DNA from: Gammaproteobacteria bacterium
Lineage (GTDB): Bacteria > Pseudomonadota > Gammaproteobacteria > Steroidobacterales > Rariloculaceae
Assembly (NCBI GenBank): GCA_050485685.1
Contig: JBJHBW010000006.1
Location: 25,073 to 89,072, forward strand
Reading direction: 5' to 3'
Length of the DNA stretch: 64,000 nucleotides
Position numbers and translations under genes: made by a program. The notes below the pieces were generated by a model that was not told the DNA's origin, ran no database searches, and saw only the letters and a list, made by a program, of their open reading frames with translations. Shown in pieces: positions 4,219 to 52,245 of the stretch (position 1 is the first letter of the stretch; each line of letters opens with the position of its first letter).

Positions 4219-4830
4219 GTGAGCGTGGTCGATACAGTCAGGCGATCGGCGGAATCCCGGGAATCGGTCAACACAGCGGCGCTGAATGCGCCGCTGTTCC
4301 GTTCGGTGATTGAACGCATGCACGGCGGAGGCCGTTGGGTGGTCCTCGACCTCGGGCCTGCCAGAAGCGGTACCGTAGGCCTGTTCAGCCAGTTTCGCTG
4401 CCGCCTGGAAATTGCGGACATCGCAACCGGCATCGACGCGCTGAACGCCGCGGAGGATCCTGCTCCGCTCGCCGACGCGATGTTGCCGCCGCAAAGGGAC
4501 GAACTCGTCGATGTCGTGTTGTGCTGGGATATTTTCAATTATCTGACCCGGCCGTCGCTGCGCGCTCTGATGGACGGCATTGCGCGCAGGTGTCATGCCG
4601 GCAGCCTCGTGCACGCGCTGATCGTCTATTCAGCACCGCGTATGTCATCACGGCCGGGGCGTTACGTGCCCACCGAGGATGGCCGCACGCTCAACGTCAG
4701 CGGCAGTGGCGCGCAGATCGAATCGCCGCGTTACTCGCCTGAAGATCTGACGCTGGCGATGCCGCGCTTCACCGTGGAACGGGCCATGTTGCTGCGCAAC
4801 GGCATGCAGGAGTTTCTGTTTCGCATGTGA
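4219..4830 (+). CDS. hypothetical protein, class I SAM-methyltransferase-like fold
   Basis: Motif I-like VVLDLGPARSG and a later DVVLCWDIFNYL segment. Coding-like composition, 64 nt downstream of the bactofilin gene. Function not supported beyond the fold guess. Confidence 0.4.
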   Translation: MSVVDTVRRSAESRESVNTAALNAPLFRSVIERMHGGGRWVVLDLGPARSGTVGLFSQFRCRLEIADIATGIDALNAAEDPAPLADAMLPPQRDELVDVVLCWDIFNYLTRPSLRALMDGIARRCHAGSLVHALIVYSAPRMSSRPGRYVPTEDGRTLNVSGSGAQIESPRYSPEDLTLAMPRFTVERAMLLRNGMQEFLFRM

Positions 4831-4839
4831 CGGCGGGTT

Positions 4840-6036
4840 TCAGAACCCGTGCAGATTGAACACGTGGCCGTGATCAGGGTCGTCGCGAAACGATTCGTAA
4901 TGCAGTCTCAGCAGCTCGGCGCCGTAATCGTTGCCGTTCGGAGTGCGCACGATGCTGTGCACGTGGCGACGCAGGGGAACCTCGCGCGGGCCTGGCAGTG
5001 CGACGGGACCCTGGTGATCGAACTCAATCCAGATCACCGGGCTGTGAATCCGGTAATAGAACACAGCGTCCGGACCGACAGCGCCGCGCCACGCAAACCA
5101 GGTGTTGTCCATGTGGGCGCGTACTTCGTCCATCCTGACTTCCGCATGCCCCTCCGGCATGTGGCTGACCCACAGTGCAATCAGATTCAGCAGGCCGGCG
5201 CGCTGGCTCGCTGACAGCGACGTCGCGGCAATACCCTGATAGGGAACCACGACATTGTCACTGAACATCTCGGCCAGGTTTTCGCCACGGCGCTTCACCG
5301 GGTCGAGAACGGCCGTCTGCTGCTGGTCGGCGGACAGCGATTGCATGAATGCGAAACCCAGATCCTGCTCCTCCTCCAGAACCGATGTGCCGGCATAGAT
5401 GCCCGATTCTGCAAAGGTGGGCTCGGAACCCATGAACGTCGGTGTCATGACGATCTGATCGCCGAGAATGAAGTAATTGATGATCAGGTGGTGACCGTCC
5501 AGCTGCCATCCCCAGGGCTCGTCGGCGGAGGGAAGGCCCATCATGGTCACCCAGTACAGGTGCTCGCCATAGGCATCGAAGTTGTCCACCAGCTCGGCAA
5601 GGTGGTGATTCAGGCGCATGATGTCGCGAGTGGTTTCATAGCCCCGCGCACTCAGGGATGCACGCAGCAGCGTATAGGTGGCTTCCCGCTGGGACTCCGT
5701 CATCTCGTCCAGGCTCACGCCTTCGCGCGGGAATGCGTGAATGTTGGCCCAGTTGCGCCACTCGCTATGCGTGACCGGGAAGGTCATCGCTTCATGCTGT
5801 TCCGGTGTCAGCACGGCCAGCAGCTGTTCGGCTGCCAGACGCACCGGCTCCGTGCTGATGCCGGTTTCAGCGATCTCGAACAGGTCGAGTATCGGTGTGC
5901 CGTCCGTGGTCAGCCCGGTCAGGGGCTCAGCCAGTGCCCGTTCCGCGCGTTCGGCAAAACCCTGCGCGTGGACGGTGGCGGATGCCGCTGTGGCCAGCAG
6001 GGTCAGTGTGACAGGCCATGCCGTTCTGCTGTTCAT
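4840..6036 (-). CDS. DUF3500 domain-containing secreted protein
   Basis: Signal peptide, then motifs I recognise from DUF3500 (PWGWQLDGHHLIINYF and HSIVRTPNGNDYG). Confidence 0.7.
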   Translation of the reverse strand: MNSRTAWPVTLTLLATAASATVHAQGFAERAERALAEPLTGLTTDGTPILDLFEIAETGISTEPVRLAAEQLLAVLTPEQHEAMTFPVTHSEWRNWANIHAFPREGVSLDEMTESQREATYTLLRASLSARGYETTRDIMRLNHHLAELVDNFDAYGEHLYWVTMMGLPSADEPWGWQLDGHHLIINYFILGDQIVMTPTFMGSEPTFAESGIYAGTSVLEEEQDLGFAFMQSLSADQQQTAVLDPVKRRGENLAEMFSDNVVVPYQGIAATSLSASQRAGLLNLIALWVSHMPEGHAEVRMDEVRAHMDNTWFAWRGAVGPDAVFYYRIHSPVIWIEFDHQGPVALPGPREVPLRRHVHSIVRTPNGNDYGAELLRLHYESFRDDPDHGHVFNLHGF

Positions 6037-23803: not shown

Positions 23804-24559
23804 ATGCCCGGATCAGCGCTTGTCGCGGTGTCCGCGGGTATTGCCGTGCTTCTGTCATGCGGCACAGTCAGCGCCGAAGTCAACAGCTACGCCACTGTAA
23901 CCAGCGAGTATGTCGCCCGTGGGCTTGCCGCGTCCGATGGTGCACCGGCGCTGCAGCTGGCTGTGGACTATCAGCATGATACCGGCTTTTTCGTCGGTGC
24001 CTGGGGTTCAAGCATAGACATCGACAATCCGACCGGTGGTCGTCGCTCAATAGAACTCAATCTGTATGCGGGCGTCCACCGGGAGCTTGGGGCGGGTTGG
24101 TCCGGCGCGTTGACCACGATCCGCTACACCTATCCGGGTGCATCCGTAAGTACATACCCTCATGAATCGGGAACTGTTTCCGCCACGCGGCGGTTCGATT
24201 ACAGCGAGTGGCTTCTGGGTGCGCAATGGGCAGGGCGAGCCTCCGCGGACAGCCGGGTGTCCATTGAGATCGGGTACAGTTCCGGCGTTTACGGTTCCCG
24301 CCAGTCGGCTCGACACCTCCAGGTTGGCGTCGGCCACATGCTGGCAAGCGGATGGGTGCTGAGCGGCTCTTTCGGGCGCAACGATCTGAGCGCGCTGCAG
24401 GTTCCCGCCTACCTGTACTGGGATCTTGGCGCTTCGGCCACCTGGTCGCGATTCACGCTGGATGTGCGCTGGTACGACAACGAAAGTGTGTACAGCGGAG
24501 GGTACGGCGGTTACGCCGCGGGTTCACGGTGGGTCGGGAGTCTGTCGGTTGCGTTCTGA
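23804..24559 (+). CDS. TorF/Gcw_chp family putative outer-membrane porin (TIGR02001-like)
   Basis: Signal peptide, then VTSEYVARGLAASDGAPALQLAVDYQHDTGFFVGAWGSSI, typical of this family, and a C-terminal ...GSLSVAF. Start at ATG 23804 (AGGA 7 nt upstream); the longer ORF runs through the tRNA. Confidence 0.65.
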   Translation: MPGSALVAVSAGIAVLLSCGTVSAEVNSYATVTSEYVARGLAASDGAPALQLAVDYQHDTGFFVGAWGSSIDIDNPTGGRRSIELNLYAGVHRELGAGWSGALTTIRYTYPGASVSTYPHESGTVSATRRFDYSEWLLGAQWAGRASADSRVSIEIGYSSGVYGSRQSARHLQVGVGHMLASGWVLSGSFGRNDLSALQVPAYLYWDLGASATWSRFTLDVRWYDNESVYSGGYGGYAAGSRWVGSLSVAF

Positions 24560-25907
24560 CGCCGACATCGCATCCATGCTTTTCGAGAACAGCGGATAAC
24601 GCCCGGCAGGCATTCAACGGTCCGTGCGGCGAATTGCTGCTCGTGGTCAGAAGCTTTTCGATGGCCGAGGGTGTCAGCGATGGCTGGCGCGCGACCAGCA
24701 GCGCGGCTACCCCGGCGACATGCGCCGCGGCCAGCGAACTGCCGGACCGATAGCCGTATCGTCCGTGCGGAACAGTGACCAGTATCTCATCAGCCGGCGC
24801 GAGAACGGCGTGAGACTGCATCAGCCTCATCGCGTGAGGCTGCGCGCCTATGACACTGCTCGCTGCCACGATGACACCGGGTACGCCTGCCGGGAAGCCC
24901 GGTGACTGGTTGCCGGCCGGCGCCGCTGCAATCACTATCCTGCCGTCGGTGATAGCCTGTTCGACCAGTCGTGACAGCAGCGTGTCGGCGGGGCCCGCGA
25001 TGCTCAGGTTGATGATGTCCACGCCCGACTCGATCGCATGTGTCAAAGCCTGCGCCAGCGTGAAACTGTTGCACCGTGCCGGCTGTTCGGGCTGAACATG
25101 CCAGCAGGCCTTCAGGACGTGTAGTCGCGCTTGCGGCGCGATACCCACCATACCGGTATGGTTGTTGGCGTTAGCGGCAATCACGCCGGCAATCGCGGTG
25201 CCATGTGCATCATCGGTGAAGTTTCCCGAGTCGCCTTCGACGAAGTCCTTGTGTTGCGCTATGCGACCGGCGAGGTCCGGGTGGCGAAGGTCCGCGCCGG
25301 TGTCGATGATCGCGATTGTTGTGCCCCGGCCGGTGCTGATGGCGTGGGCCTGCGGGATCTGCATTGCTCCCAGCGCATGCTGCAAAGGCGCATAAGGATC
25401 GTTGTAAAGCTCCGCCAACGCCGACTGCGTTTCGTATACATGCAACGGCTCGGCCGACCGGATCCCGTCAATGTCCGCCAGCCGGTCAAGTAGTGTGTCC
25501 AGATCGTGCGTCTCGGGGACGTGAAACACGATGCAGTACAAGCCCAGCGGCCGGATCGGCCACTCCGCGACCGGTTCCAGGTCAAATCTGCCGGCAATGC
25601 GCCTGGCAGTCTGGCGGACACCCGTCGACACACGATAGGCGGAACGGTTCAGATAGCGCGGCCCGGGGCGGCCGCTCAGATCCATGCGCGCCGCGTTCGG
25701 ATCGGAAATTGTCACAAGAATCTGGGTGCCGGGCCGGTCCATTGCCTGCAGCCTTTCCATCTGAGCTGGCGGCCAGACGGCTGCCGCGATCTCACTGGCG
25801 GCACTGTCTGTGTCCTGGGCCTGGCCGGGCACCGGCGCTATCAGCCAGAGCAGCAAAGTGAAGCCTGTAAGAAAGGCCGGAACCCGGACTCCGAGCGGGG
25901 CATTCAT
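24453..25907 (-). CDS. S8 family (subtilisin-like) serine peptidase with N-terminal propeptide-like region
   Basis: Signal peptide and catalytic contexts IAIIDTGAD (Asp), DDAHGTAIAGVIAA (His), SGSSLAAAHVAGVAALL (Ser). The Arg-rich last 35 or so aa look like read-through into the convergent gene. Confidence 0.85.
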   Translation of the reverse strand: MNAPLGVRVPAFLTGFTLLLWLIAPVPGQAQDTDSAASEIAAAVWPPAQMERLQAMDRPGTQILVTISDPNAARMDLSGRPGPRYLNRSAYRVSTGVRQTARRIAGRFDLEPVAEWPIRPLGLYCIVFHVPETHDLDTLLDRLADIDGIRSAEPLHVYETQSALAELYNDPYAPLQHALGAMQIPQAHAISTGRGTTIAIIDTGADLRHPDLAGRIAQHKDFVEGDSGNFTDDAHGTAIAGVIAANANNHTGMVGIAPQARLHVLKACWHVQPEQPARCNSFTLAQALTHAIESGVDIINLSIAGPADTLLSRLVEQAITDGRIVIAAAPAGNQSPGFPAGVPGVIVAASSVIGAQPHAMRLMQSHAVLAPADEILVTVPHGRYGYRSGSSLAAAHVAGVAALLVARQPSLTPSAIEKLLTTSSNSPHGPLNACRALSAVLEKHGCDVGVRTQPTDSRPTVNPRRNRRTLRCTHFRCRTSAHPA

Positions 25908-47480: not shown

Positions 47481-48422
47481 GTGCGCCTTTACAGACACCA
47501 AAGCTCCTTGCGCCGCGCTGGTGAGGACCGTGCAATCGCCGTCGGCGTGTTCGACGGACTGCACGTCGGCCATCGCGCCATCCTGAAGAGCCTGAAGGCC
47601 GAGGCGCAGGTGCTCGAATGCCCGGCCATGGTGTTCTCTTTCGAGCCCATGCCATCGGAATTCTTTGCGCCGGACAATCCTCCGCCCAGGCTCACACGCT
47701 TTCGCGAGCGCTTCGAGCTGCTGCGCGAAGCCGGCGTAGATGAGTTTTTCTGTCCGCACTTCGGTGCCGTGCGAGCGCTGGAGCCGGATGCCTTCATCAG
47801 CGAACTGCTGGTGCATGGACTGCGTGCACGCCATGTGGTGATCGGACACGATTTCCGATTCGGTGCGAACCGGCGCGGCACCATCGAACAGCTGGAAGCG
47901 GCCGGGCGCCAGTACGGATTCGGCATCACCGCGCTGCCGGCGGTGTTTCTGCACGGCCGGCGCGTCAGCAGCACGGCGATCCGCCAGGCGCTGGCGGCCG
48001 GCGATCTGGCGATGGCAAGGCAGATGCTCGGCCGTGACTATGCCATGTCCGGTCGTGTCGTACGCGGGCGCGGACTGGGGCGCGAACTCGGCTTCCCTAC
48101 CGCGAATGTGAACCTGAACCGCCGCCAGACGCCGGTGGACGGCATTTTCGCCGTTCATGTCACCGGGCTGGGTGCGGAGCCTTTGCCGGGGGTCGCCAGC
48201 GTAGGCACGCGGCCCACGGTCGGCGGTGGCGCGCCGCTGCTCGAGGTCTTCCTGTTCGATTTTGACGCCGACATCTACGGCTGCTACATCACCGTGCATT
48301 TCGTACGGCGCCTGCGCGAGGAACGCCATTTCCCGTCCATGCAGGCGCTGCGTGAGCAGATGGCAATCGATGCCGATCAGGCACGGGCGGTCCTGCAGCA
48401 GACCGAGTCCAGGGTTCCCTGA
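47481..48422 (+). CDS. ribF: bifunctional riboflavin kinase / FAD synthetase
   Basis: AIAVGVFDGLHVGHRAIL (nucleotidyltransferase) and the C-terminal kinase GRELGFPTANV...YGCYITVHFVRRLREERHF. GTG start. Confidence 0.92.
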   Translation: MRLYRHQSSLRRAGEDRAIAVGVFDGLHVGHRAILKSLKAEAQVLECPAMVFSFEPMPSEFFAPDNPPPRLTRFRERFELLREAGVDEFFCPHFGAVRALEPDAFISELLVHGLRARHVVIGHDFRFGANRRGTIEQLEAAGRQYGFGITALPAVFLHGRRVSSTAIRQALAAGDLAMARQMLGRDYAMSGRVVRGRGLGRELGFPTANVNLNRRQTPVDGIFAVHVTGLGAEPLPGVASVGTRPTVGGGAPLLEVFLFDFDADIYGCYITVHFVRRLREERHFPSMQALREQMAIDADQARAVLQQTESRVP

Positions 48423-48476
48423 GTCAGGCCATTTCAGGCTGCGTCCTGCCGCCAATTGCAGTAGACTCGCGCCCCA

Positions 48477-48792
48477 ACAGCGACGATGGGGACGAGTAGC
48501 CGGGCCCCGATGAGAGCAGCGAGCGGGAGATGGTGTGAGTCCCGCCTCATGACCCCGGCGAATATCACCCCGGAGCTGCCGACCGAAACGGGATAAGAGG
48601 GGCTGTGCCAGATGCGAACGGCAGCCCGGCGACGCAACGTCAGCACACTGAGCGGCGTTGTCTGAAGATCCCCGAGTAGACTCGGACGGCCGGCCACCGT
48701 GACAGGGCCGCGACTGGCGCTGCCAGTCGGCAAGGTCGACGGCCGCAAGGCCGCGACGAAACCGGGTGGTACCGCGATCCCGATCGCCCCGG
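48477..48792 (+). promoter_or_regulatory. T-box riboswitch leader (Ile specifier AUC) upstream of ileS
   Basis: Stem I (48477-48578) has a K-turn-like base (CAGC-GACGA / GGA-GCUG), GAGUA, an AG-rich bulge, distal loop GAUGGUGUGAG, and specifier loop GAAU-AUC-A (AUC at 48564-48566). Stem III at 48735-48757 has a GCAA tetraloop. Invariant T-box core GGGUGGUACCGCG at 48764-48776. The antiterminator-type fold is CCGGG[UGGUACC bulge]GCGAU-CCCG-AUCGC-CCCGG (48762-48792). Confidence 0.8.
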
Positions 48793-48816
48793 TGTGTGGC
48801 TCGCAAAGCTTAAGGC

Positions 48817-48876
48817 CACGCTTCAGCTGAAGCGTGCGCGGCCTCTCCGGGACGCTTCACTTCTTTCCTGAAGCGT
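48817..48876 (+). promoter_or_regulatory. paired inverted repeats in the ileS leader (possible expression platform)
   Basis: CACGCTTCAG/CTGAAGCGTG (48817-48836) and ACGCTTCA-cttctttcc-TGAAGCGT (48852-48876). The four arms can pair in two mutually exclusive ways. No U tract follows either hairpin. Confidence 0.45.
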
Positions 48877-48951
48877 GCATGACAGGTGCGGCGCGAGGCA
48901 GTGTTGTCCCCGCAGGCCGCGACCGACGGCAGTGGCGAAAGGGATCAGGCA

Positions 48952-51900
48952 ATGTTCGAACAGGTACCGGCACGTTACGACGGCCCCGCGCTGGAGCGCC
49001 GGGTGCTCGACTTCTGGCGTCAGGAAAAAGTCTTTGAACGTATCATCGCGTCCGGAGAGGGCAGGCCGGCCTTCGTGTTCTATGAAGGCCCGCCCACCGC
49101 GAACGGCCGCCCCGGCATACATCATGTGTTGGCACGAACCTTCAAGGATCTGTTTCCGCGCTACAAGACTATGCGCGGCTATCACTGTCCGCGACGCGCC
49201 GGCTGGGATACGCACGGCCTGCCGGTGGAGCACGAGGTCGAAAAGACGCTAGGCATCTACGACAAGAAGCGTATCGAGCAGGAAGTCGGCATCGCCGAGT
49301 TCACGAAGCGCTGCCGTGAGTCGGTGATGCGCTACGTCGCCGACTGGGAGGCGATGACCGAGCGTATGGGCTTCTGGGTGAACTTCGAGGAAGCCTATTT
49401 CACGCTGCACAACGACTACATCGAAAGCGTCTGGTCGCTGCTGAAGACGATCTGGGATCGTGGCCTGATCTACCAGGGCTACAAGGTGGTGCCGTACGAC
49501 CCGCGCATTGGTGCGACGCTGTCGTCACACGAAGTCGCGCTCGGTTACCGGGAAGTCGAGGATCCGTCCGTTTATGTGCGCTTCCGTGTCGCGGGCGAGG
49601 CGAACACCAGCTTTCTGGTGTGGACGACGACGCCGTGGACGCTGCCGTCCAACCTGCTGCTGGCGGTGCACCCGGACGTGGAGTATGCGCGGGTTCGTGT
49701 CGGTGGCGATGCAGATGCGTCCGGTGGTGAGCCCCAGGTGCTGATTCTCGCGCGCGAACTGCTCGGCACCGTGCTCGGCAACCGTGGCGCCGATGTCGAT
49801 GCCACAGCCAGTGCCGGTGCCAGTGTCGACGCCAGTTCCGATACGGCTGATGCCGACGCGGGCGACGGCCATGACAGCGCAGACTACGAAGTCGTGTCCT
49901 TTCACAAGGGCAGCGAACTCGTCGGCATGCGCTACGAACGGCTGTTCGACTGGCTGGATGCCGGCGATGCCGACATCTGCCGTGTGGCCGCCGCGGATTT
50001 CGTGACCATGGATTCGGGCACCGGCATCGTCCACATTGCGCCGGCCTATGGCGAGGACGACCTGAAGGTCGGCAGGCAGAACGGCGTGCCGGTGCTGCAC
50101 GGGGTCGGCGATGACGGTTATTTCCTGCCTGAGGCGAAACCGGTGGCGGGTCTGTTCTTCAAGGAAGCCGATCCCGTCATCACCGCTCTGCTGCGTGAGC
50201 GCGGTCTGCTGTTCCGTGAAGGGAAATATCTTCATAACTATCCTTTCGGCTGGCGTACCGGCGATCCGCTGATCTACTTCGCCAAGCATGCGTGGTACAT
50301 CCGCACCACGGATTATCGCGAGCGCATGGTGGCGCTGAACCGCACCATCAACTGGGTGCCCGAGAACATCCGCGAAGGACGCTTCGGCAACTGGCTGGAG
50401 AACAACATCGACTGGGCACTGTCGCGCGAGCGCTTCTGGGGTACGCCGCTGCCGGTGTGGACGGATGGTGAAGGCGATTTCATCTGCGTGGGCTCTGTTG
50501 CGGAACTGGCCGAAAGGGCCGGACGGGATCTCACCGGACTGGACCTGCATCGTCCGGCCGTTGACGACGTGACTTTCACGCATGAAGGTCGCGAGTATCG
50601 CCGCGTGCCCGAAGTCATCGACTGCTGGTTCGATTCCGGCGCGATGCCGTATGCGCAATCGCACTATCCGTTCGAGAACAGGGAAATCTTCGAACAGAAC
50701 TTTCCGGCCGACTTCATCTGCGAGGCCATCGATCAGACGCGCGGCTGGTTCTATACGCTGCACGCGATCGCGACCATGGTGTCGGATGATGTGGCATACC
50801 GGAACGTGATCTGCCTGAGTCACATCGTCGATCAGGACGGCAAGAAGATGTCGAAGTCGCAGGGGAACATCGTGGACCCCTACGACGTGTTCGATCATGT
50901 CGGTGCCGATGCACTGCGCTGGTACTTCACGGCGCGGGTGGCGCCGGATGTGCAGAAGCGCGTGTCGGTGGACATCATTGCCGACGTTGCGAGCAGCTTC
51001 ATCAACACGTTCTGGAACACGTACGCATTCTTTGTCATGTACGCACGTCTGGACGGATTCGATCCGAAGTACGACGTCGACTGGCGTCGCAGGCCGGAGA
51101 TCGATCGCTGGGTGCTGGCGCTGCTGGACGACACGGTCGAGACCGTGACGGCCGCGCTCGATGCCTACGACGCGCAGACGGCCGGGCAGGCCATCGAGCG
51201 TTTCGTGGACCAGCTCAGCAACTGGTATATCCGTCGCAATCGCCGCCGCTTCTGGAAAGCGGCCAGCGGTGACGACAAGCAGGCGGCTTACCTGACGCTG
51301 CATGAGTGCCTGGATGTGATCCACCGGCTGATGGCGCCGTTCGTGCCGTTCCTGGCCGAGGAAGTGCATCGCAATCTGGTGCGGGGCCTGAATGACCATA
51401 CGCCGGCCAGCGTGCACATGCGCGAATGGCCCGTTGCGTGCGCCGACAGACTGGACCGCAGGCTGCTGGCCGAGACCGAGGTCGTGCAGCGCGTCGTGGG
51501 ACTGGGGCGTTCGGCGCGTAATGCGTCGAAGCTGAAAGTGCGTCAGCCGCTGAAGCGCATACTCGTGCGTGTGCCGAATGCGGCAGCGCAGGATGCGGTG
51601 AGGCGTCACGAAGATCAGATCCTCGAGGAACTGAACGTCAAGGCCGTGGAGCTGATTCCGCCGGACGCAACACTGGTGAGCTATCGCATCAAGCCGAACC
51701 TGCCGGTGGTCGGCAAGCGCTATGGCAAGCTGATTCCGGCGATACGGGAGTTTCTTGCCACTGCCGATGGCGCGGCAATCGCGACCGCGGTCGCGGCCGG
51801 CGAAACGCAGGTGTTCACGATTGCCGGGCAGGCGGTCGAGTTGACGCCCAACGCGCTGCTGGTCGAAACCGCATCGGCGGAAGGGTTCGCGTGTGCAGAG

Positions 51901-52245
51901 GAGGGCGGTTATCTGACCGGGCTCGATACGCATCTGGACGACGAGCTGCGACGTGAGGGTCTTGCTCGCGAGCTGGTACGATCGGTGCAGGAGGCGCGCA
52001 AGCAGGCGGGCCTTGAAGTGTCGGATCGCATCGTGCTGTTCGTCGATGGCGGGGAGCGTGTTCGCGACGCGCTGGAAACCTTCCGCGATTATCTGATGAA
52101 TGAGACCCTGGCGAGCCGGTTCGAGAGGCCGGCGGCGGATGCGTATGAAGTCGAAGGTGGCGAAGGCGACGACCGGTGGCGTATTGCGCTGGCCAGGGAT
52201 GCGGGCGGTGTGAGATCCGATGGCGGTGAATCCGGGCAGGGATGA
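48952..52245 (+). CDS. ileS: isoleucine--tRNA ligase, long type 2 (Thermus/eukaryote-like) form
   Basis: Starts MFEQVPARYDGPALERRVLDFWRQEKVF. Has FYEGPPTANGRPGIHHVLARTFKDLFPRYKTMRGY (HIGH region) and KMSKSQGN, and is about 1097 aa. The upstream in-frame GTG 48886 is rejected by comparison with my recollection of the Thermus N-terminus. Confidence 0.95.
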   Translation: MFEQVPARYDGPALERRVLDFWRQEKVFERIIASGEGRPAFVFYEGPPTANGRPGIHHVLARTFKDLFPRYKTMRGYHCPRRAGWDTHGLPVEHEVEKTLGIYDKKRIEQEVGIAEFTKRCRESVMRYVADWEAMTERMGFWVNFEEAYFTLHNDYIESVWSLLKTIWDRGLIYQGYKVVPYDPRIGATLSSHEVALGYREVEDPSVYVRFRVAGEANTSFLVWTTTPWTLPSNLLLAVHPDVEYARVRVGGDADASGGEPQVLILARELLGTVLGNRGADVDATASAGASVDASSDTADADAGDGHDSADYEVVSFHKGSELVGMRYERLFDWLDAGDADICRVAAADFVTMDSGTGIVHIAPAYGEDDLKVGRQNGVPVLHGVGDDGYFLPEAKPVAGLFFKEADPVITALLRERGLLFREGKYLHNYPFGWRTGDPLIYFAKHAWYIRTTDYRERMVALNRTINWVPENIREGRFGNWLENNIDWALSRERFWGTPLPVWTDGEGDFICVGSVAELAERAGRDLTGLDLHRPAVDDVTFTHEGREYRRVPEVIDCWFDSGAMPYAQSHYPFENREIFEQNFPADFICEAIDQTRGWFYTLHAIATMVSDDVAYRNVICLSHIVDQDGKKMSKSQGNIVDPYDVFDHVGADALRWYFTARVAPDVQKRVSVDIIADVASSFINTFWNTYAFFVMYARLDGFDPKYDVDWRRRPEIDRWVLALLDDTVETVTAALDAYDAQTAGQAIERFVDQLSNWYIRRNRRRFWKAASGDDKQAAYLTLHECLDVIHRLMAPFVPFLAEEVHRNLVRGLNDHTPASVHMREWPVACADRLDRRLLAETEVVQRVVGLGRSARNASKLKVRQPLKRILVRVPNAAAQDAVRRHEDQILEELNVKAVELIPPDATLVSYRIKPNLPVVGKRYGKLIPAIREFLATADGAAIATAVAAGETQVFTIAGQAVELTPNALLVETASAEGFACAEEGGYLTGLDTHLDDELRREGLARELVRSVQEARKQAGLEVSDRIVLFVDGGERVRDALETFRDYLMNETLASRFERPAADAYEVEGGEGDDRWRIALARDAGGVRSDGGESGQG

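Follow-up and report, generated by a model that had tools for sequence, protein, structure and literature searches.

What does the spacer between ribF and ileS encode in an uncultured gammaproteobacterium? The stretch analysed here, hereafter the window, comprises 64,000 nucleotides (nt) of contig JBJHBW010000006.1 (assembly GCA_050485685.1, forward-strand positions 25,073 to 89,072), and a first-pass annotation made from its letters alone had called this spacer unusually long and read in it an isoleucine-specific T-box riboswitch. We measured the spacer at 529 nt (ribF stop at 48422, ileS ATG at 48952), and the sequence comparisons below indicate that 48474-48794 is a genuine T-box riboswitch of class I architecture, with specificity for tRNA-Ile(GAU) through an AUC specifier. 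It is a known type of element in a host class from which it is unreported in the open-access literature, and its clade is sizeable and had not been annotated before. The window's own leader is labelled WIN, and related loci carry L-numbers (for example L163, L162 and L012).

A T-box leader before ileS

A permissive cmscan of 48380-49000 returned a full-length match to the T-box family RF00230 on the plus strand (62.7 bits, E=2.9e-13, model positions 1-219), so the covariance-model (CM) search that the first-pass annotation had proposed for 48400-48960 gave a significant result, though one that falls short of the RF00230 gathering score of 93 bits, which is a curation cut-off and not a structural feature. 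A scan of the whole window against Rfam at gathering thresholds reported tRNA-Pro alone and no T-box. The shortfall counts against the identification, as does the high compositional bias of the match (23.4 bits). We attribute the low score to extra sequence, 89 nt of it in Stem II and more ahead of Stem III, and to a high G+C content (about 65-68%). The leader of L162 scores 65.1 bits and that of L012, a canonical Woeseiaceae relative with a perfect terminator, 61.0 bits, indicating that the entire clade lies below the Rfam gathering score.

The predicted architecture was recovered part by part (Table 1). The kink-turn (K-turn)/AGUA element, the AG bulge and the distal loop GAUGGUGUGAG were all found where the annotation had placed them, and together with the codon-plus-purine specifier loop they give Stem I its characteristic build, including a platform for the tRNA elbow formed by AG bulge and distal loop, as judged by CM alignment and covariation. 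The specifier loop GAA-U-AUC-A spans 48560-67, and its AUC is read directly in the sequence. Specifier and antiterminator aligned to RF00230 at posterior probability near 1, Stem II (with its AGUA) and Stem IIA were also aligned by the model, and the pairs of Stem III had low posterior probability in the Rfam alignment; the GCAA cap that had been claimed for Stem III is present. The core GGGUGGUACCGCG lies at 48764-48776, and here sequence and CM alignment agree on the antiterminator with a 7-nt UGGUACC bulge: helix A1 pairs 48762-66 with 48788-92, the bulge occupies 48767-73, and helix A2 pairs 48774-78 with 48783-87. The UGGU of the bulge presumably fits a tRNA with discriminator A73. Within Stem II, the apex (48591-48668) is only 62% identical between WIN and L163, with flanks at 95-96%; it folds into two sub-hairpins in each and resembles a locally hypervariable or recombined patch.

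Table 1. Coordinates in the window of the leader's parts and of the presumed target gene
Feature	Position	Strand	Basis or remark
Putative -10 promoter element TAGACT	48462..48467	+	12-14 nt upstream of Stem I; hexamer conserved at equal distance
T-box leader, Stem I to antiterminator end	48474..48794	+	RF00230 match; homologues in >60 loci
Stem I: K-turn/AGUA, AG bulge, distal loop (about 48528-48541), specifier loop	48480..48576	+	CM alignment
Specifier codon AUC (Ile), followed by conserved purine A48567	48564..48566	+	Sequence, RF00230 specifier column, invariance
Stem II: S-turn-like GAGUAGA (48674-48680), variable apical insertion (48591-48668), putative Stem IIA/B	48577..48702	+	CM alignment, 89-nt insertion
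Stem III with GCAA tetraloop (48745-48748)	48735..48757	+	Sequence, centroid fold, conserved in L163 and L162
Antiterminator/antisequestrator	48761..48793	+	CM alignment, posterior probability near 1.0
Proposed anti-Shine-Dalgarno strand GAUCCC-GA-UCGCC	48776..48788	+	Overlaps helix A2 and loop; pairs with 48934-48946
Lineage-specific insert between T-box and Shine-Dalgarno region	48794..48925	+	WIN and L163 only, absent from L162
Shine-Dalgarno region GGCGA-AA-GGGAUC, 3' strand of proposed sequestrator	48934..48946	+	Duplex, folds, pair probabilities
ileS, type-2 (MupA-like) isoleucyl-tRNA synthetase, 1097 aa, presumed target gene	48952..52245	+	TIGR00392 926 bits, MupA model 806 bits

To place the element in a family, IleS relatives were gathered from GTDB species representatives, and a metagenome scan contributed 80 further loci. 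Of 20 genome loci from Gammaproteobacteria, 16 have the exact core GGGUGGUACCGCG upstream of ileS, as do about 45 metagenome loci, usually at 60-260 nt. In one of the 16, L018 (Arenicellales), the distance is 741 nt, with an inserted open reading frame (ORF; 5300-5995 of that locus) separating the T-box terminator from ileS. The specifier amino acid thus matches the downstream gene, an arrangement of AUC (Ile) before ileS that more than 60 related loci share, and AUC is invariant in all of the 54 distinct leaders that were aligned, which precede closely related type-2 ileS genes of gammaproteobacterial MAGs (Woeseiaceae and relatives). Projecting the Rfam-derived structure onto the alignment of these 54, we found that 91.2% of Stem I cells are paired and that compensatory change occurs in 18 of 21 pairs; covariation scores 0.49, above the 0.21 of shuffled alignments and at a level reached in none of 500 shuffles, and slid registers of Stem I pair at only 35-53%. 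Across about 57 relatives, hardly any change is seen in the antiterminator segments CCGGG, UGGUACC and CCCGG. In the covariation test the outermost antiterminator pair was not consistently paired and hence uninformative, the rest of helix A1 being invariant.

These comparisons bear on whether the T-box identity holds. The score of 62.7 bits against a gathering score of 93 and the 23.4-bit bias would speak for a mere likeness by chance in a spacer rich in G+C, or for a mis-binned Gram-positive or Chloroflexi contig. Both are hard to reconcile with the E-value over the full RF00230 model, with a homologous, covarying element in 54 leaders and with its equivalent position before ileS in more than 60 loci. 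They also conflict with the contiguous proteobacterial synteny of the contig and with Obg, MurJ, RibF and LspA proteins that are 55-98% identical to those of gammaproteobacterial metagenome-assembled genomes (MAGs), on contigs of up to megabase length. On the comparative data we consider both ideas already refuted and the chance that either is right negligible.

Output at the level of translation or transcription

In most relatives the 3' strand of the antiterminator (CGCCCCGG) has a second role: it forms the 5' arm of a strong hairpin with a U-run behind it, by its sequence the textbook class I design, and enforcing the antiterminator in canonical terminator relatives costs +11 to +15 kcal/mol. 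Near-perfect palindromes of 50-110 nt are inserted in the terminator loops of L115, L123, L146 and L059 and in the platforms of L091 and L094; they resemble insertions of the miniature inverted-repeat transposable element (MITE) type that preserve the terminator stem.

The window's leader lacks this hallmark of class I, a point on which the annotation was silent. Neither a consensus scan nor folding from the T-box 3' strand found an intrinsic terminator after the element, and the sole U-rich stretch of the spacer forms a hairpin loop that differs in L163. We found instead that the antiterminator 3' half can pair with the Shine-Dalgarno (SD) region. The duplex 48776-88 : 48934-46 has a predicted energy of -22.0 kcal/mol, the best of all same-length leader stretches (shuffle p about 0.005), and the helix is present in both the minimum free energy and centroid folds of the full leader. 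In the tRNA-free ensemble the SD helix has pair probabilities of 0.83-0.94 versus 0.04-0.05 for the antiterminator. Enforcing the antiterminator in WIN costs +4.6 kcal/mol and raises the probability that the SD is unpaired from 0.25 to 0.53. Translational T-boxes need balanced conformer stabilities (PMC7583486), and the small gap fits the bistability expected of them.

In the mechanism that we propose, the leader would be transcribed from its own promoter just after ribF and would control the type-2 ileS. Uncharged tRNA-Ile would pair through its anticodon with AUC and through its NCCA end with UGGU, stabilising an antiterminator-like helix, and in the competing ground state the antiterminator 3' half would pair over a long range with the SD region. 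Uncharged tRNA would thus free the SD, and charged or absent tRNA would leave it sequestered. Because there is no terminator and the SD helix is the competing ground-state fold, translational output is the most likely one. We hold with middling confidence that the window carries a functional Ile T-box that acts on translation by SD sequestration; tRNA binding, promoter and translational output are all inferred from sequence and folding.

Own transcription of the leader is suggested by a TA(G/C/A)ACT hexamer whose spacing to Stem I is shared by WIN, L163, L162, L083, L105, L130, L112, L098, L141 and L165, even though a consensus sigma-70 scan of the leader returned no full promoter. In L162, ribF and the T-box are separated by oppositely oriented genes, so ileS there needs its own promoter; the insertion (4329-5413 of that locus) consists of a DUF924 gene and an oppositely oriented pair of ribbon-helix-helix (RHH) type.

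Several observations weigh against SD sequestration by a working riboswitch. The predicted gain in SD accessibility is modest, and the sequestrator helix spans about 150 nt around a lineage-specific insert, in a G+C-rich RNA of the kind in which long-range pairs are easily over-predicted. The helix has no covariation support among WIN, L163 and L162 because the three share identical pairing bases. Pairing between SD and antiterminator is a borderline case in L083 and lacks significance in L091, L094 and L105, and in L091, L105 and L165 no competing fold disfavours the antiterminator (free-energy difference 0 to +0.3). Whole-leader stability is no better than that of shuffles (z=-0.41), a measure that is uninformative in G+C-rich RNA, and the window holds no tRNA-Ile gene against which the T-box match could be checked. 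In favour of sequestration, L162 keeps GAUCCC/GGGAUC (p 0.02-0.04) together with a local GAUCGCC/GGCGAUC hairpin, at an antiterminator cost of +9.5 kcal/mol. In L161, whose IleS is 87% identical to the window's, the SD region is altered to GGAAUC by a G to A change at 48943, and the contig ends 37 nt upstream of ileS.

A functional T-box might still attenuate transcription, through a non-canonical terminator (without a U-tail, or factor-assisted) or a Rho-dependent one within 48795-48951. Termination is the ancestral mode, since an intrinsic terminator overlaps the antiterminator 3' strand in most T-box relatives; in L162, L083 and L165 a competitor hairpin survives that draws on antiterminator bases but has no U-run; a long Stem I with an elbow platform is typical of transcriptional T-boxes (PMC7583486); and the long untranslated spacer of 157 nt gives Rho room. 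Yet the window has no hairpin-plus-U-run, its only U-rich stretch is the non-conserved loop noted above, and its first downstream hairpin (48794-48821) begins beyond helix A1, which removes it as a competitor of the antiterminator. A Rho-dependent site is disfavoured because G exceeds C in the spacer (G 0.34, C 0.30), which is not rut-like, and the energy gap of the antiterminator is small beside that of canonical relatives. We consider attenuation unlikely.

The insert itself, about 130 nt long, contains three hairpins (48794-48821, 48818-48835 and 48852-48876) built from repeated ACGCUUCA/UGAAGCGU arms that are unique within the window; their stems are kept and their loops vary between WIN and L163. 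The insert might derive from a mobile palindrome. Two of the palindromes (48818-35 and 48852-76) were considered as a possible terminator/anti-terminator relay or repetitive extragenic palindromic (REP) element, and both readings were rejected because the palindromes are unique in the window and the U-rich loop differs in L163. A leader peptide was also rejected, the short ORFs of the spacer being devoid of Ile codons and not conserved.

The other alternative is a decaying relic, in which terminator loss has uncoupled a recognisable aptamer, ileS is effectively constitutive, and the leader is heading for the loss seen in a sister clade. That large clade, on which the annotation also had nothing to say, has the same ribF-ileS-lspA context, no T-box and a spacer of a few tens of nt, and L133 and L135 hold truncated T-box remnants (34.2 bits) from which Stem I is deleted and AUC lost. 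The leaders L091, L105 and L165, without a fold that competes with the antiterminator, also fit decay. The remnants in L135 (3798-3932) and L133 still have the K-turn and the antiterminator, but 8 nt stand in place of the distal two-thirds of Stem I, and no terminator is present.

Conservation speaks on both sides of this question. Among the other T-boxes in ribF context, whose IleS proteins are 76-88% identical to the window's, Stem I is 73-84% and Stem III plus antiterminator 76-87% identical to WIN, compared to 48-61% for four-fold-degenerate ileS sites and 34-51% for the platform. The platform is thus as diverged as neutral sites, as a relic would have it. The aptamer domains, however, are far more conserved than those sites, a pattern that favours some surviving tRNA-dependent output over a pure relic; neither AUC nor the UGGUACC bulge nor helix A1 has been damaged, changes in Stem I are compensatory, and the window's SD-pairing partner is statistically unusual. 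By these sequence comparisons the aptamer is under purifying selection despite the loss of the terminator, and the platform drifts. A relic seems to us improbable, if a shade less so than attenuation, and sequestration of the SD is the account that we prefer.

Host lineage and probable descent of ileS2 with its leader

The first-pass annotation had inferred a gammaproteobacterial host from gene order, and both synteny and homology uphold it. The genes around the leader run ispB / rplU-rpmA-obg / murJ-ribF-ileS-lspA; the order Obg-MurJ-RibF-IleS-LspA is shared with relatives on contigs of up to 2.4 Mb, and all named homologues of the window's Obg come from MAGs labelled "Gammaproteobacteria bacterium". 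Among GTDB species representatives, the closest IleS relatives (58-76% identical) belong to MAGs labelled Woeseiaceae, Acidiferrobacteraceae, Arenicellales, Chromatiales and Gammaproteobacteria, and outside the gammaproteobacterial group identity drops to 42-49% (Chloroflexota, Actinomycetota, Clostridia and others).

The public protein cluster of the window's IleS carries the C-terminal domain PF19302. We placed its ATG by N-terminal homology (MFEQVPARYDGP); public IleS calls start upstream of it (region 48886-48951; NCBI protein of 1113 aa starting at 48904; JGI homologue of 1127 aa). Such extended ORFs run into the leader and would obscure the SD along with some of the regulatory region. 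The protein also has an insertion of about 30 residues, rich in Asp, Ala and Ser and of low complexity (aa ~280-311, 49789-49884), that is absent in L162 and L013 and 6 residues shorter in L163. Elsewhere in the window, 24453-25907 on the minus strand encodes a 484-aa subtilisin-like protease whose top-ranking NCBIfam model describes the mycosin of type VII secretion (E=5.7e-46, below its cut-off), a match unexpected in a gammaproteobacterium.

In a rough neighbour-joining tree of the N-terminal 250 aa, gammaproteobacterial IleS2 proteins form one monophyletic group nested among the IleS2 of Chloroflexota, Actinomycetota and Bacillota that bear a T-box. Since the IleS relatives nearest to this group from outside (about 45-49% identical) are those of Chloroflexota, Actinomycetota and Clostridia, an ancient co-transfer of leader and gene is likely. 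Stem I profile matches to Chloroflexota, Clostridia and Actinomycetota leaders were all similarly weak, singling out no donor phylum. The horizontal acquisition that the annotation had suspected is thus plausible, but it is not recent: a large gammaproteobacterial ileS2 clade had the T-box in its ancestor, which makes the transfer an old one, followed by vertical descent. The most economical reading of the sequences is that ileS2 and its leader were probably co-acquired long ago from a T-box-rich phylum, with vertical descent, relocation and erosion afterwards.

Basal, mostly marine members of the clade carry ileS2 and T-box as a stand-alone unit amid unrelated genes. In most of L001-L019 and L096-L159 (marine, Woeseiaceae) the unit lies away from ribF/lspA, near genes for an aldo-keto reductase, a short-chain dehydrogenase/reductase (SDR), hydrolases and a DsbA-like protein. 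In the window's soil lineage it occupies the classical ribF-ileS-lspA slot, where the T-box is retained in three branches (WIN/L163/L162; L083/L091/L094; L105) and in the further locus L165, which came to light after the tree had been built. Tentatively, this one clade may preserve a natural series, from stand-alone units with a terminator (Woeseiaceae and relatives), through relocation to the ribF slot with terminator loss, long-range SD sequestration and a full-length Stem I (the window's lineage), to remnants and loss in its sisters. If the series is true, the window would hold a translational T-box with class I architecture outside Actinobacteria, in the first T-box system described in Gammaproteobacteria.

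Relation to known T-boxes and meaning for the clade

Like the class I ileS T-boxes of Bacillota (Bacillus subtilis, Staphylococcus aureus; RF00230), the window's element has a K-turn, a long Stem I whose AG bulge and distal loop form a platform, an AUC-plus-purine specifier loop and a UGGN bulge in its antiterminator, and it is predicted to have a Stem II with S-turn, Stem IIA/B and Stem III. The gene family presumed to be regulated is the same, and marine and soil relatives of the window keep the overlapping intrinsic terminator. Unlike them, it is hosted by an uncultured gammaproteobacterium, precedes a type-2 ileS, has a leader of high G+C content with large Stem II insertions, and lacks a terminator, with 157 nt between antiterminator and start codon.

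Translational class II ileS T-boxes are known from Mycobacterium smegmatis, M. tuberculosis and Nocardia farcinica (Sherwood et al. 2015, as cited in PMC7583486 and PMC7778990). The window shares with these actinobacterial elements a type-2-like ileS, an Ile specifier and the absence of an intrinsic terminator and, as predicted here, an SD sequestered by the antiterminator 3' half and a small energy gap between folds. Actinobacterial class II elements mostly have a truncated or ultrashort Stem I and an SD adjoining the discriminator domain, whereas the window has its SD about 150 nt away, across an inserted hairpin domain, and a full-length Stem I in place of the truncated one that is typical of class II without being obligatory. 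The two have no direct sequence relationship beyond the shared T-box core. A few translational T-boxes do keep a long Stem I (PMC7583486), and TBDB looked for translational T-boxes in Actinobacteria only.

The taxonomic oddity that the annotation had pointed out stands, as far as the open-access literature goes: proteobacterial T-boxes are listed only for the deltaproteobacterial leuA genes of Geobacter sulfurreducens and Pelobacter carbinolicus (PMC2494555), and a 2025 survey still calls T-boxes restricted to Bacillota (PMC12452182). Those leuA elements resemble the window's in being isolated occurrences outside Gram-positive phyla, and differ in class (Delta, not Gamma), in gene (leuA, not ileS), in specifier and in having no link to a horizontally acquired synthetase. 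The open-access literature yielded no pairing of T-box with Woeseia, and no description of such an element in the papers checked that mention T-box riboswitches together with Gammaproteobacteria or Pseudomonadota, though a mention beyond open-access text is possible.

T-boxes are regarded as a Gram-positive hallmark. The comparisons reported here reveal a conserved, covarying Ile T-box family before type-2 ileS in environmentally abundant Gammaproteobacteria (Woeseiaceae and soil relatives), one that standard annotation misses because the whole family lies under the Rfam gathering score. Since the clade holds related leaders with a terminator, without one, truncated and absent, how a riboswitch alters its expression platform once it has moved into a phylum inclined to translational control can be tested directly. 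Type-2 IleRS is the mupirocin-insensitive form of the enzyme, and its regulation in Gram-negative hosts is therefore of some practical interest.

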